A stretch of DNA of 26,977 bases from an uncultured archaeon (GTDB taxonomy: Archaea; Asgardarchaeota; Lokiarchaeia; Sigyniarchaeales; SOKP01): contig CAZBPC010000043.1 in the NCBI GenBank assembly GCA_964493715.1, positions 1-26,977 of the forward strand. The letters run 5' to 3'. The notes beneath the pieces were generated by a model. That model saw only the letters and a list, made by a program, of their open reading frames with translations, made no database searches and was not told the DNA's origin. Positions within the stretch are counted from its first letter, which is position 1. Each line of letters starts with the position of its first letter. Below, one piece after another: positions 2,531 through 24,840 of the stretch. The position numbers and the translations under genes were made by a program.

Positions 2531-3499
2531 TTGAGTCGAGAAAAGCAACACGATACGGATTCAGCTATTTGCACTCATCAGAATCTAATGCAAGATGGTC
2601 CATTCATTGTATGTCAGGATTGTGGATTAATTGTTGATGAGGGGTTAGAATTTGAAACGTCTTCTTCTTCAGGATATTATTCAGATAGTCAATTTGATTA
2701 TGAAAGGAAAATTCGAGCGAGTAATTCGAAAGCAATACAAGATCCCGCTATAAAACAAAAATATGAAAAACTTAAAAACTTAAATATTTGGTTTAGAGAT
2801 TATCATACTAGTTTTACAGAACAAAAAAAAACTATTGAATTATTAAAAAGTTATGGAATCGGTTTAAATATAGATGATACTAAGTATAAGACAATTAAAG
2901 ATAGTTATCTCAGATACAATAAGTATCACCGAGAGACTTATCAGAATATGATAATTATCTTTCTTGCTGTTGTATGGATGGAAATAAAAGATAAAACTAA
3001 CATAAGAATTGAAGAATTCATAAGGGTTTCTCGTGAATTGGGGCATAAAATTAATAAGAAAATGTTAAATAATGCTATGGAGAAAATAATAAGAACTGAA
3101 GTAAGGCTTAAAAAAAAGAAGCTAAAAACTCCACAAGAATTAGAAACGGAAATTAAAGAACAAATAAAGATTCTTATTCAAAAAGATATAAATCATATTC
3201 CCTTTGAGCTAATCAAAGACAATTTTCAAGATAAAAATGAGTTTGAAAAGCTAAAAATTGACATGCAGTTGATCGCAAATAAGATTCTTAAACGTATATC
3301 TTATTCATTCCTTCAAAATCTAAATTACAAGGCTTTTGCAGCAGGATTAATCTATTATATTGGACAGACTCTTGAAAACCCGAAAATATTCACTCAAAGT
3401 TTAATTGAACAAACAAGCAGATTTTCAAGTACAACAATAAGAAAGAAATTTCATATTTTGAAAGAAATTTTGGGAGATCCCGCAGAATTATCAATATAA
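2531..3499 (+). CDS. Divergent TFIIB/TFB-like protein (Zn ribbon plus degenerate cyclin folds)
   Basis: CTH...IVCQDCGLIV Zn ribbon; C-terminal KAFAAGLIYY...FTQSLIEQTSRFSSTTIRKK matches the second cyclin repeat and HTH of TFB; TFB-like length (322 aa); TTG start. Confidence 0.75.
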   Translation: MSREKQHDTDSAICTHQNLMQDGPFIVCQDCGLIVDEGLEFETSSSSGYYSDSQFDYERKIRASNSKAIQDPAIKQKYEKLKNLNIWFRDYHTSFTEQKKTIELLKSYGIGLNIDDTKYKTIKDSYLRYNKYHRETYQNMIIIFLAVVWMEIKDKTNIRIEEFIRVSRELGHKINKKMLNNAMEKIIRTEVRLKKKKLKTPQELETEIKEQIKILIQKDINHIPFELIKDNFQDKNEFEKLKIDMQLIANKILKRISYSFLQNLNYKAFAAGLIYYIGQTLENPKIFTQSLIEQTSRFSSTTIRKKFHILKEILGDPAELSI

Positions 3500-3613: not shown

Positions 3614-6493
3614 ATGGTGGAATCCATTTCTTCACGAAAAGATTATTATATTTTGACAATTGAACAAGTAGCATCTGAATTTGAGACTGATCTCACTACT
3701 GGGTTAAGTTCTTCAATAATAGATAATAGATATCTAAAGTATGGTTATAATGAATTACCAAAGATAAAGAAGTCTCTCTGGAAAATTTATTTAGCTCCAA
3801 TTTTCAATTTTCTAATTGTTATTTTAATATTTACTGGAATTTTTGTAATTATACTTGGCGAATTTACATCTGCTATATTCACATTTACTATTGTTATTAT
3901 TAATTCGATTACAGTAATTATTCAACAGTTTAGAGCTCAGAAAGCTATGGATTCTTTATTTAAAATTGCTGCTTTAAAAGCAACAGTATTTCGAGATGGC
4001 ATTCAGTTTGAAATTCCTACTAAAGAAATAGTGCCCGGTGATATTGTACTACTTAAACAAGGTGACAAAATTCCAGCTGATGGAAGGATTATAGAAGCCG
4101 TTAACTTGACAGTAGATGAGGCCCCCCTCACTGGAGAATCAGAGGCAGTAGAAAAACAAGAAGATCTTCTTGATGTAATCCCTCTCCCAATTCAGAAACA
4201 ATCTAATATCGTCTTTATGGGTACTTATGTAAATACTGGTCGGGGAAAAATAATAATTTATGGAACAGGCACTAATACAGAGATAGGAAAAATATCAACT
4301 CAGCTTAATGAAATGGGAAGTATCGAAGACATTCCCTTAACCCGGAAATTAAATAAATTGGGTTATATCCTTGGTAGTCTTCTTATTTCTATTTTGATAA
4401 TTTTAATAGTTTATAAATTTATTATTTTAGCACTTGAAGGGAATTTTTACGGACACTATATTAGTGAAGCATTGGTCAGTTCAATTTTACGATCTATGAA
4501 TGTAATGCCAATAAACTTACCTTTATTATCAACCTTAGTATTAATAACTGGTGTTTTGAATATGGCTCAAAGTGGTGTTATTGTTAAGAATATAGCTGCA
4601 ATAGAATCATTAGGTCGTGTCTCCATCATATGCGCTGATAAAACAGGTACAATTACTCGTAATGAGATGTGTGTGAAAAAATTCTGGTTAAATGAATTAG
4701 AATATGATGTAACAGGTTCTGGATACGAATCGGATGGAACTATTACATTGAAAGGTGAAGAAATTAATTTAAGTAATGACCCAACATTTCAAAGATTTCT
4801 TGATTCAAGTATATTAAATAATACAGCTAAGTTAATTTTTGAAGACGTAAAAGTTAGAATGAGAGATCAAAAAGAAATTGCTGTACGAAGAGCAATAGGT
4901 TCTCCCACCGAGGCGGCTCTATTAGTACTAGCAGAAAAAGCAGATTTCGTAACTTATGATGTTAAGAATAAATATAATGTTATTAAAGAATTTTCTTTCA
5001 CTTCAGAATTGAAAAGAATGTCAACTGTCTGTGAATCAAAGGATAAAAAAAGTGGACATTTTGTATTCACTAAAGGAGCTCCTGAAAAAATTTTACAATT
5101 ATCCTCTCAAATTGAATTCAATGGATTAATCAAACCAATTTCAGAAGCAGTTCTGAAAGAACTTCAAAATTTAATAGACAAAAGAGCAAACCAAGGGTAT
5201 AGAACTCTTGCTATTGCTTATAAACCAATAGATAAAGCTAACATTCAAATTAGAGAAAATGCTGAATCAAATTTAATTTTTTTAGGCTTTTTTTCAATAC
5301 TTGATCCCGTAAGACCTGGAGTTAAAGATTCTGTTTCTAAATGTGAAGCGGGTGGAATTAAAGTTAAAATGATTACAGGAGATCATCCTAAAACTGCTCA
5401 AACTATTGCTGCTCAAAGTAGAATATATAAAAAAGGAGATTTGGTAGTAGAAGGGGCGGAAATTAAAAATCTTTCAGATGAGAATTTTGAAAAAGTCAGT
5501 GTTTTTGCTAGAGTAGCTCCAACAGACAAAGAAATTATAGTTAAGAGATATCAAGGACAAGATGGCAAAAAAAAGCACATTGTGGCGATGACCGGTGATG
5601 GAATTAATGATACTCTTGCCTTAAAGTTAGCGGATGCTGGAATTGCGATGGGAATAACTGGAACTGATGTGGCAAAAGAAGTTGCAGATCTCGTCATTTC
5701 AGATGATAATTTTGTTTCTATTGAGAAAGGAGTTAGAATTGGGCGAGGGTTATTTGCAAAAATTCGAAATATCATATTTTTTTTCATTTGTTTGAACATC
5801 GTGGAAGCAGCTGTTTTTTTCACATATGAATTCATTCCCACATTTCAATTATTTTCATCAGAATGGCAACATATTTATATCTATGTAATTGTCCATTCCC
5901 TTCCTTCCATAGCACTAGTAATTGACTCACATCCTAAAGATGTAATGCTTGAACCCCCGAGAGATGAACAACAATTATTAAATCGTAACATGTGGATCAT
6001 GTTAGTTACTCAAGCCTTTTTAATTGGATTAGGTTTAGTTCTAATACTCCAACTTACTATAGGGGGCTTATTTCCACTAAATGAATGGAATCTTAATCCA
6101 ACCTTAAGTTATATTCCAACGGGATCGACTCCCCAAGAAATTCTAAACCAAAAGGCAAGAACGATGTTAATCACTACAATTTATATCGTAGAAACAACCT
6201 TTATATGGACTTTTAGAAGACCAAATAAGTCGTTATTGAAAAGCATAAAAGGAGAATTCAATATAGCGTTATTTCTAATATGTACTTTTACACTCGGAAT
6301 CCAAATATTACATATCAATTTCTCACATACAGTGAATACTTATATAAATGATATTTGGGGCTTAAATTTTCAAATTAATTTCTTATTCCTTAGTGGATTC
6401 GATTGGTTAGCATGTATCTTATTTGCATTACCGGGAATAATCGGAATTGAAATTTTCAAATATATCGCAAGAACTAAAAATATGATATTTTAA
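3614..6493 (+). CDS. P-type ATPase, P2A-like scaffold with non-canonical transport site (copy 1)
   Basis: Motifs LTGES, DKTGT (D342), KGAPE, DPVR, MITGD, FARV and TGDGIND, with about 10 TM helices. M4 reads PINLP and M6 reads VHSLP. Confidence 0.95.
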   Translation: MVESISSRKDYYILTIEQVASEFETDLTTGLSSSIIDNRYLKYGYNELPKIKKSLWKIYLAPIFNFLIVILIFTGIFVIILGEFTSAIFTFTIVIINSITVIIQQFRAQKAMDSLFKIAALKATVFRDGIQFEIPTKEIVPGDIVLLKQGDKIPADGRIIEAVNLTVDEAPLTGESEAVEKQEDLLDVIPLPIQKQSNIVFMGTYVNTGRGKIIIYGTGTNTEIGKISTQLNEMGSIEDIPLTRKLNKLGYILGSLLISILIILIVYKFIILALEGNFYGHYISEALVSSILRSMNVMPINLPLLSTLVLITGVLNMAQSGVIVKNIAAIESLGRVSIICADKTGTITRNEMCVKKFWLNELEYDVTGSGYESDGTITLKGEEINLSNDPTFQRFLDSSILNNTAKLIFEDVKVRMRDQKEIAVRRAIGSPTEAALLVLAEKADFVTYDVKNKYNVIKEFSFTSELKRMSTVCESKDKKSGHFVFTKGAPEKILQLSSQIEFNGLIKPISEAVLKELQNLIDKRANQGYRTLAIAYKPIDKANIQIRENAESNLIFLGFFSILDPVRPGVKDSVSKCEAGGIKVKMITGDHPKTAQTIAAQSRIYKKGDLVVEGAEIKNLSDENFEKVSVFARVAPTDKEIIVKRYQGQDGKKKHIVAMTGDGINDTLALKLADAGIAMGITGTDVAKEVADLVISDDNFVSIEKGVRIGRGLFAKIRNIIFFFICLNIVEAAVFFTYEFIPTFQLFSSEWQHIYIYVIVHSLPSIALVIDSHPKDVMLEPPRDEQQLLNRNMWIMLVTQAFLIGLGLVLILQLTIGGLFPLNEWNLNPTLSYIPTGSTPQEILNQKARTMLITTIYIVETTFIWTFRRPNKSLLKSIKGEFNIALFLICTFTLGIQILHINFSHTVNTYINDIWGLNFQINFLFLSGFDWLACILFALPGIIGIEIFKYIARTKNMIF

Positions 6494-6672
6494 TTTTTTC
6501 TTTTAAATCCTATTTCTATATGATATCTTAATAAAAAGTATTAAAAAACTCTTTTTTATCTTTGAAAAAGAAATAAATTAAAAATAATTACTGTTATAGA
6601 CTATTTATTATTATTAATTACGTTACAAAATAATTATTAAGTTTAAAGTAATGTGTCACGGGAGAATTTCAA

Positions 6673-9561
6673 ATGAATGAAACCTATTACACTCAAGACT
6701 TAGATCAGATTTATGAAAAATTTAAAACAAATTCTACAGATGGATTACCTCGAGAAGAAGCTCAAAATAGAATCCTAAAATATGGATATAATGAATTCCC
6801 TAAAGCATCAAAGGGATTTATTAAAATCTATTTGGCACCTTTGTTTAATTGGTTAATCGTCATCTATTTAGTGGGCGCACTTATTTTATATTTAGCAGCA
6901 GTTTTTGGAAATGAAGGAAATCTAAACTTTGTTTTATTAACACTTGGGATAGTTGCATTAAATTGCATTGTAGCAATTATTCAACAGTATAGAGCCACAA
7001 AAAAGCTCAATGCTTTGCGTGAGATGACTGCCCCAACAACTACTGTCATTCGAGGAGGGCGAAAATTAGAAATACCAACAAAAGAAGTTGTTAAGGGAGA
7101 TCTTTTGGTTTTAAAACAAGGTGATAGAATTCCTGCAGATGGGCGAATTATCCAATCATCAAATTTAGAAGTAAATGAATCAAGTTTAACGGGTGAATCG
7201 GAACCTGTTAAAAAACTTAATGCTGGAAGAGCTTTAACCAAACCAGATCTTTCGATTGGAGAACGAAATAACATGGTGTTTTATGGAACCTACATAACGA
7301 CTGGAAACGGTACTGCAATAACTGTAAAAACCGGAAGAGATACTGAGATTGGGAAAATATCTCAAGGATTAGAAGACGCAGGAACTTCGGAAATTCCAAT
7401 TCGAGAAAAAATGAACAATTTTGGTAAATGGCTTGGTCTAATCGTTATCGGTTTTTGGCTGGTAATTTTATTTATCAGATGGATAGCAAGTGGATTCACC
7501 AATATTGAAATTGTTGGAAGCTTAAATGCTGCTCTTGATTTATTACCAATAAATATTCCCTTATTAGTTACCATAATTTTACTTACTGGTGTTGTTTCAA
7601 TGGCGCATCAAGGCGTGATAATAAGAAATCTTGCTTCAGTTGATAGTTTAGGCCGTGTGAGTGTTGTCTGTAGTGATAAAACTGGCACATTAACCAAGAA
7701 TCAGATGTCAATTCAACACGTATGGACTAATGGAGTGGAATATAAAGTTAGTGGCAGTGGTTATGATCCTGAAGGAAGTATAATCCTTGTTGAAGATCCT
7801 AAAAATCCAGAATATGTTCGACATATTGAAGATCATCAACAATTAAAGCTACTATTAATATCAGGATTTCTAAATAATAATTCAGCTCTTGTCAAAAATG
7901 AACTCGAAATCTCGGGTAAATTAATTAATAATTGGAGCGTGATTGGAAGCCCAACAGAAGGAGCCTTGATGGTTTTGTATCAAAAAGGGATGGGAGATCA
8001 CATGCTTGATGATTTTGAATACAGGCGTGAGTATCCTTTTGATTCAAAAGTAAAAAGAATGACCAAAATATATAAAAAGGAAGGGAAATATTACTCTTTC
8101 ACGAAAGGAGCAAATGAAATCTTATTACCTCTTTGTAGCAAGGTACTATATAAAAATACTGAACTAAATTTTACTGATGAAATTAGGGAGAAAATCAATG
8201 CAATCTCGCAATCTTATGAAAATCAAGGGTATCGAATCTTATCTTTATGTTATAAAAAACTTGATGCTATTCCTCCAGATGAAGAATATCAATCTGGGAG
8301 AAAAATTTGTGAATCGGATATGATATATATTGGTTTCGTGACTATTTTAGATCCACCGAGAGATGGAGTGAAAGATAGTGTCAAAGAATGTCATGATGCT
8401 GGCGTAAACGTGGTAATGATTACTGGTGACTCACCAATAACAGCGAGTGCTATTGCCAAAAAAATTTCAATAATTACTGATGAGGCTAATGATTTAGTTA
8501 TTGAAGGGAAGGATATAAAAAATATCAACTCTTTCTATGATTTCGGCCGGATTAAGGTATTTGCTAGAGTCTCTCCAGAACATAAGCAAGATATTGTAGA
8601 GCGATATCAAGATGCTGATAAAGTAGTAGCCATGACTGGGGATGGTGTTAATGATGCTCTTGCACTCAACATGGCTGATGCAGGTATTGCGATGGGCATT
8701 CAAGGTACTGATGTTGCAAAAGAAGCATCTGATATGGTGATTAGCGATGATTCTTTTAATTCCATAGTTACGGGAATCGAGGAAGGAAGAGGAATATTTT
8801 CACGTGTTCGCGCTGTTGTATTCTTTTATATATGCATTAATGTATTCGAAGGAATCGTACAGTTTATTCTTGCAATAATTTTAGGACTGCCTTACTTTTT
8901 AAATGAACCTTTCACAATGCAATGGATTTTTCTTTCCATAACAGTTCACTTGTTTCCGGGGTTAATCTTAACCTTTGATACTACATCGAAAGATGTCATG
9001 AAACAGAAACCAAGAGATGAGGAGGAAATCCTAAGTAAAAATACAATCTTATTATTATTCATATTTGGAATACTCTTTGCATTAAGCATGATTGTAGTTT
9101 ATTTTATCACAATTACTGGATTATACCCCGTTTTTCCTGAAAATTCGAATTTTGGAGTGTTTAATGATGCATATCTCTATTCACCAGTTACAGAACCACT
9201 ATATTCCCCTGGTATAAACCTTTCTGTTGCTAAAACGTTAACAATGCTCATGACAACTATATTTTTCTGTGAGTCCTTTCTAATATATCAGATTCGGAGA
9301 CCAAACAAGTCATTAATTAAAAGTATAAAAGAAGATAGCACTAAAACGATGTACCTTCTAATTGGTCTGCTATTTGGGTTATTCTTGCTTTTAATGTATT
9401 TACCAGGGGTTCAAGTAAAATTAGCAGAATGGGGTATTAATTTCTTTTTCATGTATCTTACAGCTTTAGATTGGTTAATCTGCTTCTTAATATCGTTAAT
9501 CTGTATAGCCTCTTTTGAGATAGTAAAATATTTTTCTCGTAGATCTGGAATATTTTTCTAA
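6673..9561 (+). CDS. P-type ATPase, P2A-like scaffold with non-canonical transport site (copy 2)
   Basis: Motifs LTGES, DKTGT (D335), KGANE, DPPR, MITGD, FARVSPEHK and TGDGVND, with about 10 TM helices. M4 reads PINIP and M6 reads VHLFP. GGAG lies upstream of the ATG. Confidence 0.95.
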   Translation: MNETYYTQDLDQIYEKFKTNSTDGLPREEAQNRILKYGYNEFPKASKGFIKIYLAPLFNWLIVIYLVGALILYLAAVFGNEGNLNFVLLTLGIVALNCIVAIIQQYRATKKLNALREMTAPTTTVIRGGRKLEIPTKEVVKGDLLVLKQGDRIPADGRIIQSSNLEVNESSLTGESEPVKKLNAGRALTKPDLSIGERNNMVFYGTYITTGNGTAITVKTGRDTEIGKISQGLEDAGTSEIPIREKMNNFGKWLGLIVIGFWLVILFIRWIASGFTNIEIVGSLNAALDLLPINIPLLVTIILLTGVVSMAHQGVIIRNLASVDSLGRVSVVCSDKTGTLTKNQMSIQHVWTNGVEYKVSGSGYDPEGSIILVEDPKNPEYVRHIEDHQQLKLLLISGFLNNNSALVKNELEISGKLINNWSVIGSPTEGALMVLYQKGMGDHMLDDFEYRREYPFDSKVKRMTKIYKKEGKYYSFTKGANEILLPLCSKVLYKNTELNFTDEIREKINAISQSYENQGYRILSLCYKKLDAIPPDEEYQSGRKICESDMIYIGFVTILDPPRDGVKDSVKECHDAGVNVVMITGDSPITASAIAKKISIITDEANDLVIEGKDIKNINSFYDFGRIKVFARVSPEHKQDIVERYQDADKVVAMTGDGVNDALALNMADAGIAMGIQGTDVAKEASDMVISDDSFNSIVTGIEEGRGIFSRVRAVVFFYICINVFEGIVQFILAIILGLPYFLNEPFTMQWIFLSITVHLFPGLILTFDTTSKDVMKQKPRDEEEILSKNTILLLFIFGILFALSMIVVYFITITGLYPVFPENSNFGVFNDAYLYSPVTEPLYSPGINLSVAKTLTMLMTTIFFCESFLIYQIRRPNKSLIKSIKEDSTKTMYLLIGLLFGLFLLLMYLPGVQVKLAEWGINFFFMYLTALDWLICFLISLICIASFEIVKYFSRRSGIFF

Positions 9562-9637: not shown

Positions 9638-10183
9638 ATGATAAAAGGAAAGCGAATTAAATTTGCACCTCTTACAAGGGATCACATTGATATTTTTTTA
9701 AAATGGTTTAACGATCCTGAAATTACGCAATACTTAATAATGTATAAACCATTAACCAGAGATTTCGAAGAAGAATGGTTTGACGCGCTTAAAAATAAAG
9801 AGGATAGCGTCTATTTCTCAATTCTTTTATTAGATCAGGAAGATCCTGAAAAAATCATAGGAAATTGTGCCATTCAGAATATTAACTCCAAAAATCGAAC
9901 TTGTTCTTGTGGTATTACTATTGGAGAGAAAGAATATCAAAACAAAGGATATGGAACAGAAGCAATGGAATTGTTGATAGAATATGGGTTTAACACATTA
10001 AACATGAATAGGATCGAATTAATTCTTTACGAATTTAATATCCGCGCTTATAAATCATATCAAAAAGTTGGTTTTATAGAAGAAGGAAAAAAACGGCAAG
10101 CAAGGTATCATAATGGTAAATATTACGATGAAATTATAATGGCTATCCTAAGAGAAGACTGGGAAAAAAAAATAAGAGAGTAA
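9638..10183 (+). CDS. GNAT N-acetyltransferase, RimJ/RimL family
   Basis: WFNDPEI, acetyl-CoA motif YQNKGYGTEA, LNMNRIEL...NIRA...YQKVGFIEEG, and GKYYDEIIMAILREDW. Confidence 0.92.
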   Translation: MIKGKRIKFAPLTRDHIDIFLKWFNDPEITQYLIMYKPLTRDFEEEWFDALKNKEDSVYFSILLLDQEDPEKIIGNCAIQNINSKNRTCSCGITIGEKEYQNKGYGTEAMELLIEYGFNTLNMNRIELILYEFNIRAYKSYQKVGFIEEGKKRQARYHNGKYYDEIIMAILREDWEKKIRE

Positions 10184-10279
10184 AGTCATCTTTCGACTTA
10201 TTTCTAAAACAATTGAATTTTTAAAATAGTTAATATTCAATTCACTAGTAATTTTTAATAAAAAAGAAGGTATATATAC

Positions 10280-11602
10280 ATGAGTAAATCAATTGTATCC
10301 ATTGTAAAATATGAAAAAGAAAAGGATTCTGTTCGGAAAGCTGTCGAACTAGCAAATGGGTTCGAAAAGCTAGATCCTAACGCAAAAGTTTTTATAAAGC
10401 CTAATTTAGTATATTGGAATCGGCATTGCGATTTTCCTAAATGGGGCATGCTCACGACTTCAAGCGTAATGGAAGAAATTTTAATATTATTGAAAGAACA
10501 TGGTGTTAGTGACATAACAATTGGGGAAGGAGTAATAACGGAAGATCCTAAAGATAGAGAAACATCTAAAGATGCTTTCGAAAAGCTTGGATATAATATC
10601 TTCAAGGAACGATATGGAGTCAGAGTATACGATATTTTTGATCGCCCTTTCGAAAAAGTGGAATTAGCAGAGGGAGTAACGGCAAAAATGAATGCAGATA
10701 TGCTACATTCAGATTTTTTGATCGATGTTCCTGTTCTCAAAACTCACGCACAGTGTGTTGTTAGTTTAGGATTGAAAAATTTGAAAGGTTTAATATCCAT
10801 TCCATCGCGAAAAAAGTTTCATGGTGACGATCCTAAATATACACTTCATTATAATGTATCAAAGTTAGCAAATAAAGCACCACCTAGTCTTACTATTATT
10901 GATGGGATCTATACTCTTGAACGAGGACCAACTTTTGATGGTAAAGCCAAGAGAAGTAACATTTTAGTTGCATCAACTGACCTTCTTTCAGCAGATTTAG
11001 TTGGTTCGAGTTTATTAGGCATTGATCCTATAACCGTTCCTCATTTAGTTCAAGCAACGAAAGACAGAAATCGCCCAATTGATTTATCAGATATTGAAGT
11101 AAAAGGAGAAACAATAGAAGATCTTGCTGTTCCTCACGAATGGGAATTCATCTATAAAAATAATAATACCTTACCTCTCTCTTATGCTAAAGCTGGCATT
11201 GGGGGAATAAGTTATCGTAGATACGATGAAACAATGTGTACATATTGTAGTTTTTTTAATGGCGTTATTTTAATGGCAATTAAAGAAGCTTGGAAAGGTA
11301 AGGATTTTGATAATATTGAAATTCTTACTGGTAAAATAATGGAACCGACTCCTGGAATGAACAAAACAATTTTACTTGGTCAATGTCAATACAATAGAAA
11401 TAAAGACCATCCAGATATAAATGAACTCATAGCGATTAAAGGATGCCCCCCTGAAGTCGAAAACATCCAAGAAGCACTGAAGAAAGCAGGGATTCACGCT
11501 CCATCTTATATCTTTAAAAATATAAAAATGGCTCCACTACTATTTTTAGGTAAATATAAGGGAAAGCCTGAATTTCAAGAAGAATTTTATCAAGTAAGTT
11601 AA
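10280..11602 (+). CDS. DUF362 domain protein with C-terminal putative Fe-S module
   Basis: DUF362 motifs IKPNLV, IGEG, VPVLKTH, SLGLKNLKG and IIDG...GP; C-terminal CTYC...GQC...GCPP. Confidence 0.8.
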   Translation: MSKSIVSIVKYEKEKDSVRKAVELANGFEKLDPNAKVFIKPNLVYWNRHCDFPKWGMLTTSSVMEEILILLKEHGVSDITIGEGVITEDPKDRETSKDAFEKLGYNIFKERYGVRVYDIFDRPFEKVELAEGVTAKMNADMLHSDFLIDVPVLKTHAQCVVSLGLKNLKGLISIPSRKKFHGDDPKYTLHYNVSKLANKAPPSLTIIDGIYTLERGPTFDGKAKRSNILVASTDLLSADLVGSSLLGIDPITVPHLVQATKDRNRPIDLSDIEVKGETIEDLAVPHEWEFIYKNNNTLPLSYAKAGIGGISYRRYDETMCTYCSFFNGVILMAIKEAWKGKDFDNIEILTGKIMEPTPGMNKTILLGQCQYNRNKDHPDINELIAIKGCPPEVENIQEALKKAGIHAPSYIFKNIKMAPLLFLGKYKGKPEFQEEFYQVS

Positions 11603-11940: not shown

Positions 11941-11956
11941 AAAAAGCCCGCTTTTT
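11941..11956 (-). terminator. Possible terminator-like inverted repeat after the deacetylase stop
   Basis: aaaaagc-cc-gcttttt inverted repeat abutting the minus-strand stop at 11956. Confidence 0.3.
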
Positions 11957-12726
11957 TATTTAAAGCCTTGGCAGAATGAATTCACATTTATAGGTAGTAC
12001 CTCGTGATTATATCCTCCCTCTAACAAGGCATATCTTCGCCCTTTGCACAGCTTTTCAGAATATTCTTTCATTAATTTTCCAATCGTATTATAATCTTCC
12101 GGAGTCAGTAATCCACCCCAATCATCTATACCTTGATCAAAACCAGCACTTGCAGCAATGATATCAATATTATCTAGTTTTTCCATGTACTTTTCGACTT
12201 CAATTAGGTATTCTTTATTTGTTCTGGCATCAGGATTTTGGATTTCTACTCTAAATCCATCATCTCGATATTTTAATATATTTAAATTACCATCACCGGT
12301 ATGTAGATCAAAATCAAGCACGAAAGCTGATTTAATTTTGCCTTCCGAGAATAATTTTAATAGACTAATACTTATGTTGTTAAAATAACAAAATCCCCAA
12401 CATGAATTTGAAGATGCGTGATGACCAGGTGGTCTGATTACTGCAAATGAGGGTTCTCCTTCAAAAGCTTTTTTAGCTGCTAATATTGCCCCTCCTGCCG
12501 CTAACGATGATAACTCAAAAAGAGAATAATCTCGTTTAATGGAATCATAATGTCTTCTTGAATGAGCTCTTAATATATCTTCTTTAGTAGCAGGTTCAGG
12601 AGTGATGAATTCAAATTCATTATTTTTTGAGAGGATCTCGACGATGCCATCCAATCTTCCTGGTGAAGCAGCAGGATCATTGGCATAACTTGAATTATAA
12701 TATTTATTATGAAAAACAATTTTCAT
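11956..12726 (-). CDS. Histone deacetylase (HDAC/AcuC/APAH) family Zn-dependent deacetylase, compact form
   Basis: RPPGHHA, GFCYFNN, DFDLHTGDG, SAGFD and LEGGY are all present. A GAGG SD overlaps the upstream tdh stop. Confidence 0.93.
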   Translation of the reverse strand: MKIVFHNKYYNSSYANDPAASPGRLDGIVEILSKNNEFEFITPEPATKEDILRAHSRRHYDSIKRDYSLFELSSLAAGGAILAAKKAFEGEPSFAVIRPPGHHASSNSCWGFCYFNNISISLLKLFSEGKIKSAFVLDFDLHTGDGNLNILKYRDDGFRVEIQNPDARTNKEYLIEVEKYMEKLDNIDIIAASAGFDQGIDDWGGLLTPEDYNTIGKLMKEYSEKLCKGRRYALLEGGYNHEVLPINVNSFCQGFK

Positions 12727-20959: not shown

Positions 20960-23296
20960 TTAGCAAGAGTTTATATTATTATAACAAAATCTCGATATGA
21001 TATCATTTTGGACTGCTTTGGGGAGATCTATAAATCTTGCACTATAACCTGAGACTCGAACCATTAAATCTCTGAATAATTCTGGAGAATTTTGTGCTTT
21101 AATCAATGTTTCAGCAGATATAGAATTAAATTGAATATGTAATCCTCCTCTCTTAAAATATGTTTTTAATAAGGCGATAAAGATATCTCCATCATCAATT
21201 TCGGCTATTTTAGGATCGATGTTTAATGTACAAGCTAATCCATTGGAAAATAATGAGTGATCAAGTTTCGTAACACTTTTAATCGTAGCAGTTAATCCTT
21301 CTCCTCTACTACTCCCTGGGGCAACATCTTTAATGAGTGGAGTACCTTTCTTCCTTCCAGATGGTAATGCCCCTGTGAACATGCCAAATCCGATGTTTGT
21401 TGTCATGGCATGAACTCCTACTCGGTATTCTCCTCCCCGAGTACACTTGAATCCTTGTATTGCTTCACGAATGATATCTGCTAATTTCTCTGCTAACAGA
21501 TCTGCTTCATCGTCATCAGATCCATATTTTGGACATTTATTCAGCAAATAAGATCTCAATTCCTTGTTTCCCCTGAAATTATTTTTAAGAGCTGAAATTA
21601 ACGTTTTCAAAGAGACAATCTTTTTATCAAAAATAGCATGATTGATAGCTGCTAAAGAATCTGCTACATCTGAAAAGCCAGTCAAGTGAATACCTGAGAA
21701 ATTATATTTTGCAGAACCTTTATTAACGTCAATTCCTTTCTCAAAACTTCCTCTAACACATAGAGTCATCAAAGGAGTCGGTTTAAGTTCAATATGAGCT
21801 TGTTGATATGCATTAGCAGCGGTAATTGCCATTTCCATGACTTTTCTAAGTTTATTTTTATAACTAGTTAAAATGTCATTAATCGTGGTAAATTTTTCAA
21901 TTTCTGTCTCAAGGGGTATCGAATCCTTCAAAATTGTGTCTTCTGTACCTAATGTAAGTTCCAAGGCTTTTGGTAAATTTAGAAATATAGCACCGGTATT
22001 ATCAAATGATAACCCTGAAGTAGAAAGTCCCACGCATCCGACAATCCCATAATTGCGTGCGTCTTCAAGCGGAATTCCATCATTTGTTAATGCTTGAATT
22101 GCGGTTTTATCATTATATAATCCAATTATATTTTTTCCATTAGCTATTATATTTGAAATATTTCGATATAGTTTATCTGGAGTATTTTCATGACATCTTA
22201 TCACAACATTCGGACTTGGAACGGCTGTTAATTCATGAGCTTTTAAAAATAAATAAGTGAGGTCATTAGTAGCATCATTGCCATTCACATCGACCCCTCC
22301 TATAACCACTCCTTGAGTCGTAGCCATTCCTCCGAAATATTGAGTTGCTACAGTGTCATATAGAGCAACAATCTCATTTGTTTTCAAAAGTAAGTTTATA
22401 AAGAGTTTTAAAGCTTCTGTCTCGTCTCCTTTATAATATTTTAATAAATATTGGTCTAATCTCCCAAAAGATATTCCATGCTCGAAATTTTCCAAGTGTA
22501 GTGCCAGATGAATAAACCAAATAAATTGGAGCGCCTCAAGCATGCTTCTAGGGGGATTTTCAGGCACATGCTTGCATGTATTAGCAATTTTAATCAATTC
22601 TGCCTTTCTTATAGGATCAGATTCTTCTAGTGAAAGTTTAATCGCTTGTTCACTAAATTTGTTGGCGTATTGGATGATTGCTTTAATTAGGATTTTTACT
22701 GACTTGTAAAAAGCTATTTTTTCATCAACACGTGTTTTGATTCCAATTTGCTTAGATAATTCTTCTAAATGTTTATTAGATGCATCCAAATAGAACCTCA
22801 ATCCATTTTCGAGCAAACGTTCATAATCTATGACAGCGTGAGCAATACCTCCTCCTTCTGTAGAAACATAAGCTACCCCTCTATATAAGACATCAAAAAT
22901 ATTTTTAGGAGCCACTTCATCAGCATAAACTTGTACACAATTGTTATTAAAAAAGGGAGCGATTTTTTCTTTCATTAATTTTATATCTTCTTCTGTTATA
23001 TTTATTGGATTAACCTCTCTTTTTGAAAGGAAATCTAATTCTCTCATTATCCTAAGTCCAGTTGCCTCAGGTCTAGGGATTGCAACAGGTACCATCTCAT
23101 CGAAAGTTCCAACAATCATTTCATCAGGTCTAATAACGATAGGCAGGCTCTCTAATGCATATCTTAACCCCTTAGCTTGCTTGATCAAAATCGGTAAACT
23201 GGGCATTTCTTCTAGTGCTTTCATGTAAGATAAAGGCACGGACAAAGAAATGGATGGATCTTTCCGAACTAAATTATTTAGAAGATTAGTAGTCAA
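20960..23296 (-). CDS. Glycyl radical enzyme (PFL2/PflD-like family), function unknown
   Basis: C-terminal VRVSGYS radical Gly (codon 21047-21049), HIQFN, SFGRLDQYL, GALPSGR and a single-Cys loop IVGCVG (Cys codon 22034-22036); TTG start. Confidence 0.92.
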   Translation of the reverse strand: MTTNLLNNLVRKDPSISLSVPLSYMKALEEMPSLPILIKQAKGLRYALESLPIVIRPDEMIVGTFDEMVPVAIPRPEATGLRIMRELDFLSKREVNPINITEEDIKLMKEKIAPFFNNNCVQVYADEVAPKNIFDVLYRGVAYVSTEGGGIAHAVIDYERLLENGLRFYLDASNKHLEELSKQIGIKTRVDEKIAFYKSVKILIKAIIQYANKFSEQAIKLSLEESDPIRKAELIKIANTCKHVPENPPRSMLEALQFIWFIHLALHLENFEHGISFGRLDQYLLKYYKGDETEALKLFINLLLKTNEIVALYDTVATQYFGGMATTQGVVIGGVDVNGNDATNDLTYLFLKAHELTAVPSPNVVIRCHENTPDKLYRNISNIIANGKNIIGLYNDKTAIQALTNDGIPLEDARNYGIVGCVGLSTSGLSFDNTGAIFLNLPKALELTLGTEDTILKDSIPLETEIEKFTTINDILTSYKNKLRKVMEMAITAANAYQQAHIELKPTPLMTLCVRGSFEKGIDVNKGSAKYNFSGIHLTGFSDVADSLAAINHAIFDKKIVSLKTLISALKNNFRGNKELRSYLLNKCPKYGSDDDEADLLAEKLADIIREAIQGFKCTRGGEYRVGVHAMTTNIGFGMFTGALPSGRKKGTPLIKDVAPGSSRGEGLTATIKSVTKLDHSLFSNGLACTLNIDPKIAEIDDGDIFIALLKTYFKRGGLHIQFNSISAETLIKAQNSPELFRDLMVRVSGYSARFIDLPKAVQNDIISRFCYNNINSC

Positions 23297-23431: not shown

Positions 23432-23908
23432 TTAGATTAATTCATATCCACAATTTGTACAAAATTGATGAGATTCCCCGTGTCTAGCACCGCAATTTGG
23501 ACAAAACAACGTATTGTTATAAATTGGATTCACTTTAGGAAATTTTTGTGGCTGTACTCTTGGAACTTGAATTTGATTTTGAGGTTGATTTTGAGAAAAA
23601 TTTTTCTGCTTTTGATAATATTTTGCAGTCTTTCTACAGCAAGACATAGTATAGCAACATATAATAAAGATTATAAAGAAAAAGATCAAAGGAATTAATT
23701 GGCTAATCAACATATATGTATAGTAGGGATCTTCTACAATGTAATATGGGTCATTAGTATAGTAATAAAAATTTATGTAGAATGAGACACCAGACATAAT
23801 AAATACGAAAATACAAATAAGAACCCCGAATAAAGCTAGTACGAAAAGGGATATTGCTTGTTTTGGAGTTAATGTAAACCCAAACCACGTTGGAGGGCTT
23901 CTTGTCAT
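23432..23908 (-). CDS. Membrane protein with 2 TM helices, Q/P-rich linker and C-terminal zinc ribbon
   Basis: Two hydrophobic helices, a QNQPQNQIQVPRVQPQ linker, and FCPNCG...FCTNCG. Confidence 0.8.
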   Translation of the reverse strand: MTRSPPTWFGFTLTPKQAISLFVLALFGVLICIFVFIMSGVSFYINFYYYTNDPYYIVEDPYYTYMLISQLIPLIFFFIIFIICCYTMSCCRKTAKYYQKQKNFSQNQPQNQIQVPRVQPQKFPKVNPIYNNTLFCPNCGARHGESHQFCTNCGYELI

Positions 23909-24045: not shown

Positions 24046-24840
24046 TTACATTTTCTTGGATTGGTCTATCCAATTTTTTATATCTACTAATGTAGGTAGA
24101 TTTCTGATAACATTTGGCTTATTTTTATCTAATTCTACTATCTTATCGAGAATTGCTTGAGGGGTTCTTCTAGCAAATTCTTTTACGGAATCGACTCCAA
24201 TTTGATTTAGAGCATCAGCATATTCTGGACCAATTCCTTCAATTTTCATTAAATTTGCGTGTTCTTGCCATTTATCAATCAGAGCTGCTGATAATTTGGT
24301 TTTTAACGCTACCTCTTTTATATTCGCTTTTGTCAATGCCATTAAATCTTCCAATTTTTCGATTCCTGCTTTTATTTTTAATATTTTCGCATATTTCGGA
24401 CCAATACCTTCAATATCGATAATGTTCATTTTGGGAGTTTTCTTCTGTTTCTTCACTTCATAAAGATCTTTTGCATCTTTTATCCAGGACTCTATTTGAG
24501 CATTAGTAGGAGGCTTTCTTATCACGTTTGGTCTTTTTTTGTCAAAAGCTTTTATTTTCTCTAGCGTGCTTTGCGCATTTCTTTTTGATAATTCTTTAAC
24601 AGAATCGATCCCGATTTTATTTAATACTTCTGCAAATTCAGGACCTATTCCTTTTAGAGAAATCAAATCTGCTTGCTCTTGCCACTTATCAATCAATTTA
24701 GAAGAGATTCTTGTTTTTTTTGCTAATTCATTGATTTCTTCCCAAGTAAGTTTTGATAAATCTTTCACCTCAGCATATCCTGCTCGTGCTAATTTTCCAG
24801 CATATTTTTTACCAATTCCTTCAATTTCTATAACTTTCAT
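24046..24840 (-). CDS. Tandem DUF4332 (helix-hairpin-helix) protein
   Basis: Two ~125-aa repeats, each with IEGIG(K/P)KYA...KWQE.A.L...GIGPE(F/Y)A..LN.IG.DSVKE...PNVIR..PT...WI. Confidence 0.85.
   Translation of the reverse strand: MKVIEIEGIGKKYAGKLARAGYAEVKDLSKLTWEEINELAKKTRISSKLIDKWQEQADLISLKGIGPEFAEVLNKIGIDSVKELSKRNAQSTLEKIKAFDKKRPNVIRKPPTNAQIESWIKDAKDLYEVKKQKKTPKMNIIDIEGIGPKYAKILKIKAGIEKLEDLMALTKANIKEVALKTKLSAALIDKWQEHANLMKIEGIGPEYADALNQIGVDSVKEFARRTPQAILDKIVELDKNKPNVIRNLPTLVDIKNWIDQSKKM

Follow-up and report, generated by a model that had tools for sequence, protein, structure and literature searches.

A distinct type II P-type ATPase clade with an Asn/His transport site in Asgard archaea

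P-type ATPase subfamilies are defined by the residues of their transport sites, and new sites have repeatedly led to new substrates, such as the lipids of P4 pumps and the polyamines or helices of P5 pumps. In the Ca2+ pump SERCA, E309 in transmembrane helix M4 and D800 in M6 are indispensable for Ca2+ site II, and D800 is needed for site I too. P4 flippases carry DGET in the A domain, PISL in M4, and a Lys in M5. Here we describe two adjacent genes of an uncultured archaeon (GTDB lineage Asgardarchaeota; Lokiarchaeia; Sigyniarchaeales; SOKP01), found in contig CAZBPC010000043.1 of assembly GCA_964493715.1 (positions 1 to 26,977, forward strand; this whole stretch of 26,977 nucleotides is called the window below). 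They are tandem, anciently diverged paralogs, and the clade they belong to is a distinct one among type II (P2-like) P-type ATPases. In this clade M4 has a hydrophobic residue, mostly Ile, in place of the Glu and Asn in place of the Gly next to it, and M6 has His in place of the Asp. We refer to it as the Asn/His clade.

Work touching on such pumps in Asgard archaea is cited here from excerpts of the sources. In the excerpted text, PMC7016017 derives SERCA and PMCA from bacteria, the 2023 review by Palmgren (PMC10654040) gives P4 and P5 as unique to eukaryotes and leaves Asgard archaea unmentioned, and PMC10456885 sought Spf1 motifs in Asgard sequences and obtained none; the excerpts of PMC7911474 add nothing on M4 motifs. 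In the corresponding part of a transporter survey (PMC7997004), Asgard orthologs are assigned to a putative Ca2+-ATPase, TC 3.A.3.2.21, and the assignment is taken as support for Ca2+ signalling. The clade is undescribed by title or abstract in papers naming both "Asgard" and "P-type ATPase," with subscription journals outside this coverage. We regard these pumps as an orphan, Asgard-restricted type II family with an Asn/His transport site; the view that they form a new subfamily and are not ordinary Ca2+ pumps is well supported by the results that follow.

Two tandem pumps with a rebuilt transport site

The two genes lie on the same strand with 179 bases between them, and their products share 40% identity across the full length. 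Each protein has the same five Pfam domains, Cation_ATPase_N, E1-E2_ATPase, Cation_ATPase, Hydrolase, and Cation_ATPase_C. Membership in the P-type ATPase superfamily (HAD-IC) is evident from the E1-E2_ATPase and Hydrolase domains, from the DKTGT, TGES, TGD, and GDGxND motifs, and from the superfamily model TIGR01494, which both proteins pass (263 and 294 bits; cut-off, 62.3). Motif positions were located by script, and every motif was found once per protein. The features, in window coordinates, are as follows.

3614-6493, + strand: gene 1 (P0001), uninterrupted open reading frame (ORF) of 959 aa; P2-like P-type ATPase of the Asn/His clade
4130-4141, + strand: TGES of gene 1, A-domain dephosphorylation loop
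4508-4522, + strand: M4 PINLP of gene 1, with Ile at the SERCA E309 position and Asn at the G310 position
4637-4651, + strand: DKTGT of gene 1, phosphorylation site
5369-5383, + strand: (MI)TGD of gene 1
5594-5611, + strand: GDGIND of gene 1
5792-5806, + strand: M5 LNIVE of gene 1, N..E kept
5894-5896, + strand: M6 His codon (CAT) of gene 1, at the SERCA D800 position
6185-6196, + strand: M8 IVET of gene 1, Glu kept
6673-9561, + strand: gene 2 (P0002), uninterrupted ORF of 962 aa; tandem paralog of the Asn/His clade
7189-7200, + strand: TGES of gene 2
7546-7560, + strand: M4 PINIP of gene 2, where the modelled M4 helix is broken (residues 289-293)
7675-7689, + strand: DKTGT of gene 2
8416-8430, + strand: (MI)TGD of gene 2
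8638-8655, + strand: GDGVND of gene 2
8836-8850, + strand: M5 INVFE of gene 2, N..E by alignment
8947-8949, + strand: M6 His codon (CAC) of gene 2, aligned onto the Asp of solved pumps
9265-9276, + strand: M8 FCES of gene 2, Glu kept

As judged from these motifs, both proteins have an intact machinery for ATP-driven phosphorylation and dephosphorylation. The transport site is altered. At the positions where a P2A Ca2+ site has its M4 Glu and M6 Asp, both genes encode Ile and His. HMMER alignment with the Listeria Ca2+-ATPase pairs PINIP with PEALS and the His with the Asp of "NDSLP" in M6; in the alignment with the non-gastric H,K-ATPase, the His pairs with the second Asp of "DLGTD," and the M5 N..E of the two proteins coincide. 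The codons themselves differ between the paralogs, Asn being AAC in one and AAT in the other and His being CAT and CAC. A first-pass annotation of this DNA, made from its letters, had described intact TGES, DKTGT, TGD, and GDGxND motifs, a PIN[L/I]P motif in M4, a His in M6, and a retained M5 NxxE and M8 Glu. Translation, the motif script, and the HMMER alignments bear out each of these, with the coordinates agreeing as well, and the M5 and M8 acids are likewise kept among relatives, as detailed below.

Signature, phylogenetic placement, and distribution of the clade

To place the two proteins, we searched 1.84 billion cluster representatives exhaustively with phmmer and analyzed the best 150 (clustered at 50% identity). 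After alignment, 43 of these prove to be signature-bearing proteins or fragments of them, while 107 are PEGLP/..TD.. pumps, here termed canonical; the Gly and Asp of that canonical pattern are present in 87 to 88% of the 107. A column comparison was made for residues that reach 85% conservation or more among 33 clade rows and are shared by no more than 10% of the 107 canonical rows. Only four columns separate the clade from the canonical pumps, namely, Asn294 (canonical Gly), Arg328 (Ser), Asn401 (Cys), and His759 (Asp), so that M4 Asn and M6 His are themselves two of the four.

A clade profile was built from the 31 full-length members in alignment A1. Full-length members score at least 1,038 bits with it (P0001 scores 1,263), whereas canonical P2A pumps reach at most 908 and the canonical P2A pump of the window's own genome scores 760. 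Proteins with at least 950 bits and 880 residues make up a set of 342, which are relatives rather than independent events and are skewed to close homologs of the queries. Within this set the M4 Pro is invariant (342/342) and is followed by Ile in 304 proteins, Leu in 14, Phe in 11, Val in 10, and Trp in 3. Asn is found in M4 in 338 of the 342 and His in M6 in 340, with the two occurring jointly in 338. The M5 Asn is present in 333, the M5 Glu in all 342, and the M8 Glu in 339, and the Gly and Glu of TGES and the phosphorylated Asp are each present in 342/342. No member has Glu or Asp at the positions equivalent to E309 and D800 (0/342). There are four exceptions to the signature: P0133 (Met, His), P0158 (Ser, His), and P0145 and P0391, both from one 90% cluster, in which the two site positions have changed together (Ser with Gln). 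The Asn/His pattern is far above chance. Because the pair is nearly invariant and is among only four separating columns, the rebuilt site is the trait that defines the clade. Decay of the pumps into pseudogenes was considered separately and is rejected on account of the open frames, the complete catalytic motifs, and the retention of site residues across the 342 relatives.

A maximum-likelihood tree of 72 rows was reconstructed (IQ-TREE quick search, LG+C20 with posterior mean site frequencies, rooted on two P1B pumps). It holds 31 clade members (P0001 and P0002 among them), 33 canonical representatives picked from the 107 for full length and diversity, and the eight other P-type ATPases of the window's genome; the remaining 74 canonical representatives, 12 fragments, P0144, and P0150 were left out. 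NCBIfam profile scores and fold matches, instead of a joint tree, provide the comparison with eukaryotic P2B, P2D, P4, and P5 pumps. The Asn/His clade is monophyletic (Shimodaira-Hasegawa-like approximate likelihood ratio test [SH-aLRT], 100) on a stem of 0.34 and sits within a 65-row type II clade (97), with MgtA, P3A, and P1B pumps outside. As the type II backbone is close to a polytomy and P0229 is recovered as sister without a star (90), the placement is within type II, and a position deep within P2A cannot be claimed. On the basal branches of the clade M4 reads IP[FW]NFP or PWSFP, and the His is already present.

P0001 groups with representatives P0135, P0134, and P0141, and P0002 with P0123 and P0132, in different starred subclades. 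The separation indicates that the duplication is old and that the changes the paralogs share are one inherited event. The first-pass annotation had pointed to identical changes in two diverged paralogs; the changes are indeed shared, but the tree reveals that this counted one ancestral event twice. Its proposals of selection on the rebuilt site and of a candidate new subfamily fare better, as the clade is monophyletic, nearly all of its members have the signature (Asn and His together in 338/342 family proteins), and the two residues account for half of the separating columns.

Scores with family models are given below for P0001/P0002, with the genome's canonical P2A pump and a canonical representative as controls. 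The closest model is the PMR1 type, TIGR01522 (447/477 bits; cut-off, 798.3; controls, 616 to 684), followed by the SERCA type, TIGR01116 (429/425 bits; cut-off, 703.4; controls, 588 to 670). Neither P2A cut-off is reached, but the canonical controls are also below, so the cut-off alone does not discriminate; the deficit of 140 to 240 bits relative to canonical pumps on the P2A models does. Other type II and related models give 392/436 bits (P2D, TIGR01523; below its cut-off of 645.05), 403/369 (PMCA), 336/394 (Na,K type), and 330/303 (MgtA), and no curated equivalog cut-off is passed by either protein. The fold of P0002, modelled by AlphaFold2 with alignment A1 (mean predicted local distance difference test score, 82.5; predicted template modelling [TM] score, 0.75), is predicted to be that of SERCA, SPCA, and Na,K-type pumps. 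All of the best 50 Foldseek matches of this model in the PDB are P2 pumps (TM score, 0.60 to 0.77), comprising SERCA1a, -2a, and -2b, SPCA1, the gastric and non-gastric H,K-ATPases, Na,K-ATPases, and LMCA1. Assignment to type II (P2) is thus indicated by the Cation_ATPase_N and _C domains, the grouping with P2 pumps, and the P2 fold matches alike.

The distribution of the clade was examined by profile search of genomes, with scores taken for the top three to five candidates in each (three in the strict Asgard search). At an E value of ≤1e-285, the profile finds the clade in 165 of 249 genomes of the window's phylum (68 of the 89 of high quality), and 12 of 28 families are represented; at a looser 1e-150, 235 of the 249 Asgard genomes are positive, canonical P2A pumps now being included. 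With the Asgard result (165/249) as positive control, the strict search gave no hit in the phylum samples of a Bathyarchaeia-titled genome (0/201), a Methanosarcinales-titled metagenome-assembled genome (MAG) (0/201), an Anaerolinea-titled genome (0/151), and a Methanobacterium-titled genome (0/201). The phylum of a Nanoarchaeota genome, the same sample as that of the Methanosarcinales-titled MAG, gave 0/151 at the strict threshold. Eighty loci gathered by DKTGT/GDGxND patterns each hold at least one P-type ATPase ORF, of generic P2A type, and none has the PIN motif (0/80).

Named homologs are all from Asgard archaea (Lokiarchaeota, Promethearchaeota, Hermod-, Hod-, Hel-, Thor-, Odin-, and Heimdallarchaeota, and Harpocratesius), with two exceptions labelled "Nanopelagicaceae bacterium" and "subsurface metagenome," and the neighbour cluster in the ESM Atlas is mostly Promethearchaeota. 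In everything searched and named so far, the clade is confined to Asgard archaea. Weighing against an Asgard-only distribution is that it leans on four phylum samples and few names, most of the 43 representatives being unlabelled. Two clade genes lie no more than 3 kb apart on one contig in at least 31 of the 165 positive genomes, 30 of them in the window's own family and one in another.

Some individual sequences deserve mention. P0351, which is 67% identical to P0001 and bears the NCBI label "Candidatus Nanopelagicaceae bacterium," probably comes from a mis-binned contig. A P2-like pump outside the clade, at locus L059 of a Nanoarchaeota MAG, has M4 "IPNALP," with Asn right after the Pro. 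The 1.5-Mb genome titled "uncultured Methanosarcinales archaeon" shares its phylum sample with the Nanoarchaeota genome, and its title and GTDB placement seem discordant.

Candidate substrates and the pumps of the same genome

The window's genome encodes 10 P-type ATPases: two CPC P1B pumps, four P3A pumps, one MgtA, one canonical P2A pump, and the two Asn/His proteins. The canonical P2A pump has PEGL, N..E, and NIATD, and its presence indicates that the Asn/His clade adds to a Ca2+-type pump rather than replacing it. Together with the near-invariance of the Asn and His, it also upholds the first-pass view that the two proteins are not ordinary Ca2+ pumps. One P3A pump scores 993 bits with TIGR01647 (cut-off, 615.5), and the P3A M4 motifs are PVALP and PAALP, with a hydrophobic residue after the Pro. 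The P3A paralogs lie on contigs C49, C3, and C2, with a tandem pair on C49 (4655-7150 and 7247-9709); TGES was not matched in the C2 paralog by a regular-expression scan. The MgtA (C33, 17233-19815; L092) scores 777 bits with TIGR01524 (cut-off, 610.75), and its M4 PQLLP has Gln after the Pro.

The intact motifs of the A, P, and N domains argue for a normal Post-Albers cycle, in which a cytoplasmic cation would be bound in E1 and released outside in E2P. Ca2+ site II would be gone, leaving a single site predicted to be lined by the M4 Asn, the M5 Asn and Glu, the M6 His, and the M8 Glu; counter-transport would probably be of protons, with the two Glu and the His as their acceptors. We tentatively favour a single-site cation pump, most likely an exporter of a transition metal (a borderline divalent ion such as Mn2+, Fe2+, Co2+, Ni2+, or Zn2+). 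A borderline divalent ion is preferred over Ca2+, Na+, or K+ because an imidazole, two carboxylates, and two carboxamides are ligands of the transition-metal type. The paralogs differ in second-shell residues, and hence their selectivity may differ. Several points weigh against a metal substrate. The proposal is drawn from ligand chemistry only, a weak basis; the conserved neighbouring genes (see below) are uninformative on substrate; a metal-binding N-terminal domain is absent from both proteins by Pfam; and the two P1B heavy-metal pumps are already in the genome. In addition, His is also a good proton carrier and P3A pumps share the hydrophobic residue after the Pro, which makes a proton substrate nearly as good an explanation, and the SERCA site I residues for Ca2+ are kept, so that a low-affinity single Ca2+ site may exist.

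A proton or proton/monovalent-cation pump, in which the M6 His would stand in for the proton-carrying Asp of P3A pumps and pair with the M4 Asn while the two Glu served as a release or counter-ion path, is the main rival, possible by analogy, though less likely. In plant AHA2 the corresponding pair is Asp684 and Asn106. The His occupies the position of the M6 Asp in the P3A "LLND," the residue after the M4 Pro is hydrophobic as in the P3A pumps of the same genome, and Asn and His co-vary in the sole double exception. Yet with four bona fide P3A pumps already present, the clade proteins score only 320/336 bits on the P3A model, below its cut-off, with His as the M6 residue; they group with type II and not with P3 in the tree, and their invariant M5 and M8 Glu resemble a metal or cation site. 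Transport of Ca2+ or Mg2+ through a lone pocket like site I is unlikely. It would agree with the database label of relatives ("Ca2+-transporting ATPase"), with the TC assignment in the survey noted above, with the kept equivalents of N768, E771, and E908, and with PMR1 and SERCA types being the best family models. However, the equivalents of E309 and D800, both essential for Ca2+ binding in SERCA, are lost in 342/342 proteins, His is no usual ligand of either ion, the P2A-model scores are well under those of the canonical controls, and the genome also encodes a canonical P2A pump and an MgtA.

P5B pumps also lack an acid right after the M4 Pro. By analogy with them, the substrate might be an organic cation (a polyamine, for example) or some other amphipathic compound, although we regard this as quite improbable. 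In its favour, M4 has a polar residue two positions after the Pro, where P5A pumps have Asp or Glu (PP[D/E]LPxE in the excerpted text of PMC10654040), and several clade members are somewhat higher on the P5 model TIGR01657, up to 285 bits. But P0001 and P0002 reach 241/257 bits and three distant members 198 to 285, overlapping the P2A controls (213 and 274) and falling far below the cut-off of 618.25; M4 reads [ML]-P-I-N, with the PP motif absent, no P5 structure is among the best 50 fold matches, and 199 Asgard genomes hold no match to the P5 model at an E value of ≤1e-80.

The first-pass annotation had proposed a flippase-like pump or P2-P4 evolutionary intermediate, from the likeness of M4 P-I-N to the P-I-S-L of P4 pumps, and the organism does belong to the archaeal group nearest eukaryotes. 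This proposal is not supported and is now scarcely credible. The likeness comes down to a single hydrophobic residue following the Pro, a feature that the genome's P3A pumps share. On the P4 model TIGR01652 the two proteins score 109.7/108.2 bits and three distant clade members 106 to 114, against a cut-off of 431.25, and ordinary P2A controls score 90 and 96 (MgtA, 56; P3A, 50). With both P4 and P5 scores near the P2A controls, there is no specific pull of the clade toward either family. Both window pumps have TGES, DGET being absent from all 10 P-type ATPases of the genome, and M5 has N..E where P4 pumps have Lys; the clade lies inside type II, and the best 50 fold matches, all P2, include no P4 structure. 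Among the 199 Asgard genomes, nothing exceeds the P4 cut-off (best, 84 bits). The P4 partner CDC50 (PF03381) has no match in the window's genome at an E value of ≤0.01, but its model also matched 0/14 control genomes, so that this search lacks a positive control. There is at most a very slim chance that P4 or P5, the families restricted to eukaryotes, have their archaeal stem in this clade, and the finding says nothing positive on the origin of eukaryotic flippases.

Overall, the Asn/His proteins probably constitute a new Asgard-specific subfamily with a non-classical substrate (not Ca2+, Na+, or K+). Their P2 scaffold would use the His either as a ligand for a transition metal or as the carrier of a pumped proton, and each genome would have two to three specialized paralogs. 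The clade is often present in two to three copies per genome, and its members are annotated as "Ca2+-transporting ATPase" in databases. If the pumps do not move Ca2+, the inference of Asgard Ca2+ signalling in the excerpted part of PMC7997004 needs revisiting. The orphan family is easily testable, as each pump is a single polypeptide with no partner subunit seen, and it could show how a type II pump operates with a transport site built on His.

Gene context and comparison with known systems

Gene context was compared over 15 loci of six Asgard families and the window. The neighbours that recur, a subtilase, panB, and an MFS gene, are common only within one Asgard family. Upstream of the pumps in the window are two genes:

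867-1781, + strand: TFB/TFIIB-like gene with two Pfam TFIIB repeats
2531-3499, + strand: TFB-type-like ORF of 322 aa with a TTG start and a Cys-rich N terminus

The second ORF has no Pfam match at an E value of ≤0.01 and no membrane segment. Given this and the uninformative context, no partner subunit is proposed. Downstream (9638-11602, + strand, and 11956-12726, - strand) are genes for a GNAT acetyltransferase, a DUF362 protein, and a histone-deacetylase-family protein, which are not kept beside the pumps in other Asgard families. Farther away, the window encodes a glycyl-radical enzyme of the pyruvate formate-lyase (PFL) type (20960-23296, - strand; PFL-like, 513 bits, plus Gly_radical) and a DUF4332/helix-hairpin-helix protein (24046-24840, - strand) adjoining a small protein with a C-terminal zinc ribbon (23432-23908, - strand).

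Among described P-type ATPases, the P4 flippases (ATP8A1/Drs2) are like the clade only in the Pro-Ile of the M4 kink and the small polar residue that comes next; the clade pumps differ in having TGES, in lacking the M5 Lys, and in their low score on the P4 model. The P2D pumps (Na+/K+ efflux of the ENA type) provide the second-best model for gene 2 (436 bits) and for P0131 (445 bits), but these scores are below the cut-off of 645, and with canonical P2A controls at 444 and 553 bits they reflect no specific affinity. The P3A H+-ATPases share the hydrophobic residue after the M4 Pro and a single key ionizable residue at the same M6 position. That residue is Asp in P3A and His in the clade, and the clade groups with type II; its proteins are also about 130 aa longer (959 to 962 residues versus open frames of 794 to 831 for the P3A pumps of this genome) and have Cation_ATPase_N and _C.

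The P2A pumps (LMCA1 and the SERCA/PMR1 types) have the same domain set, ten-helix type II architecture, catalytic motifs, M5 N..E, and M8 Glu as the clade. They give the best matches, LMCA1 in sequence (E value, 1.5e-118) and SERCA and SPCA1 in fold (TM scores, 0.6 to 0.77), and the P2A pumps fall in the same type II clade. In contrast to them, the Asn/His pumps have P-I-N-[LI]-P in place of PEGLP and His in place of the M6 Asp throughout the clade, score 447 to 514 bits on P2A models versus 616 to 684 for canonical controls, and form a long-stemmed clade of their own.

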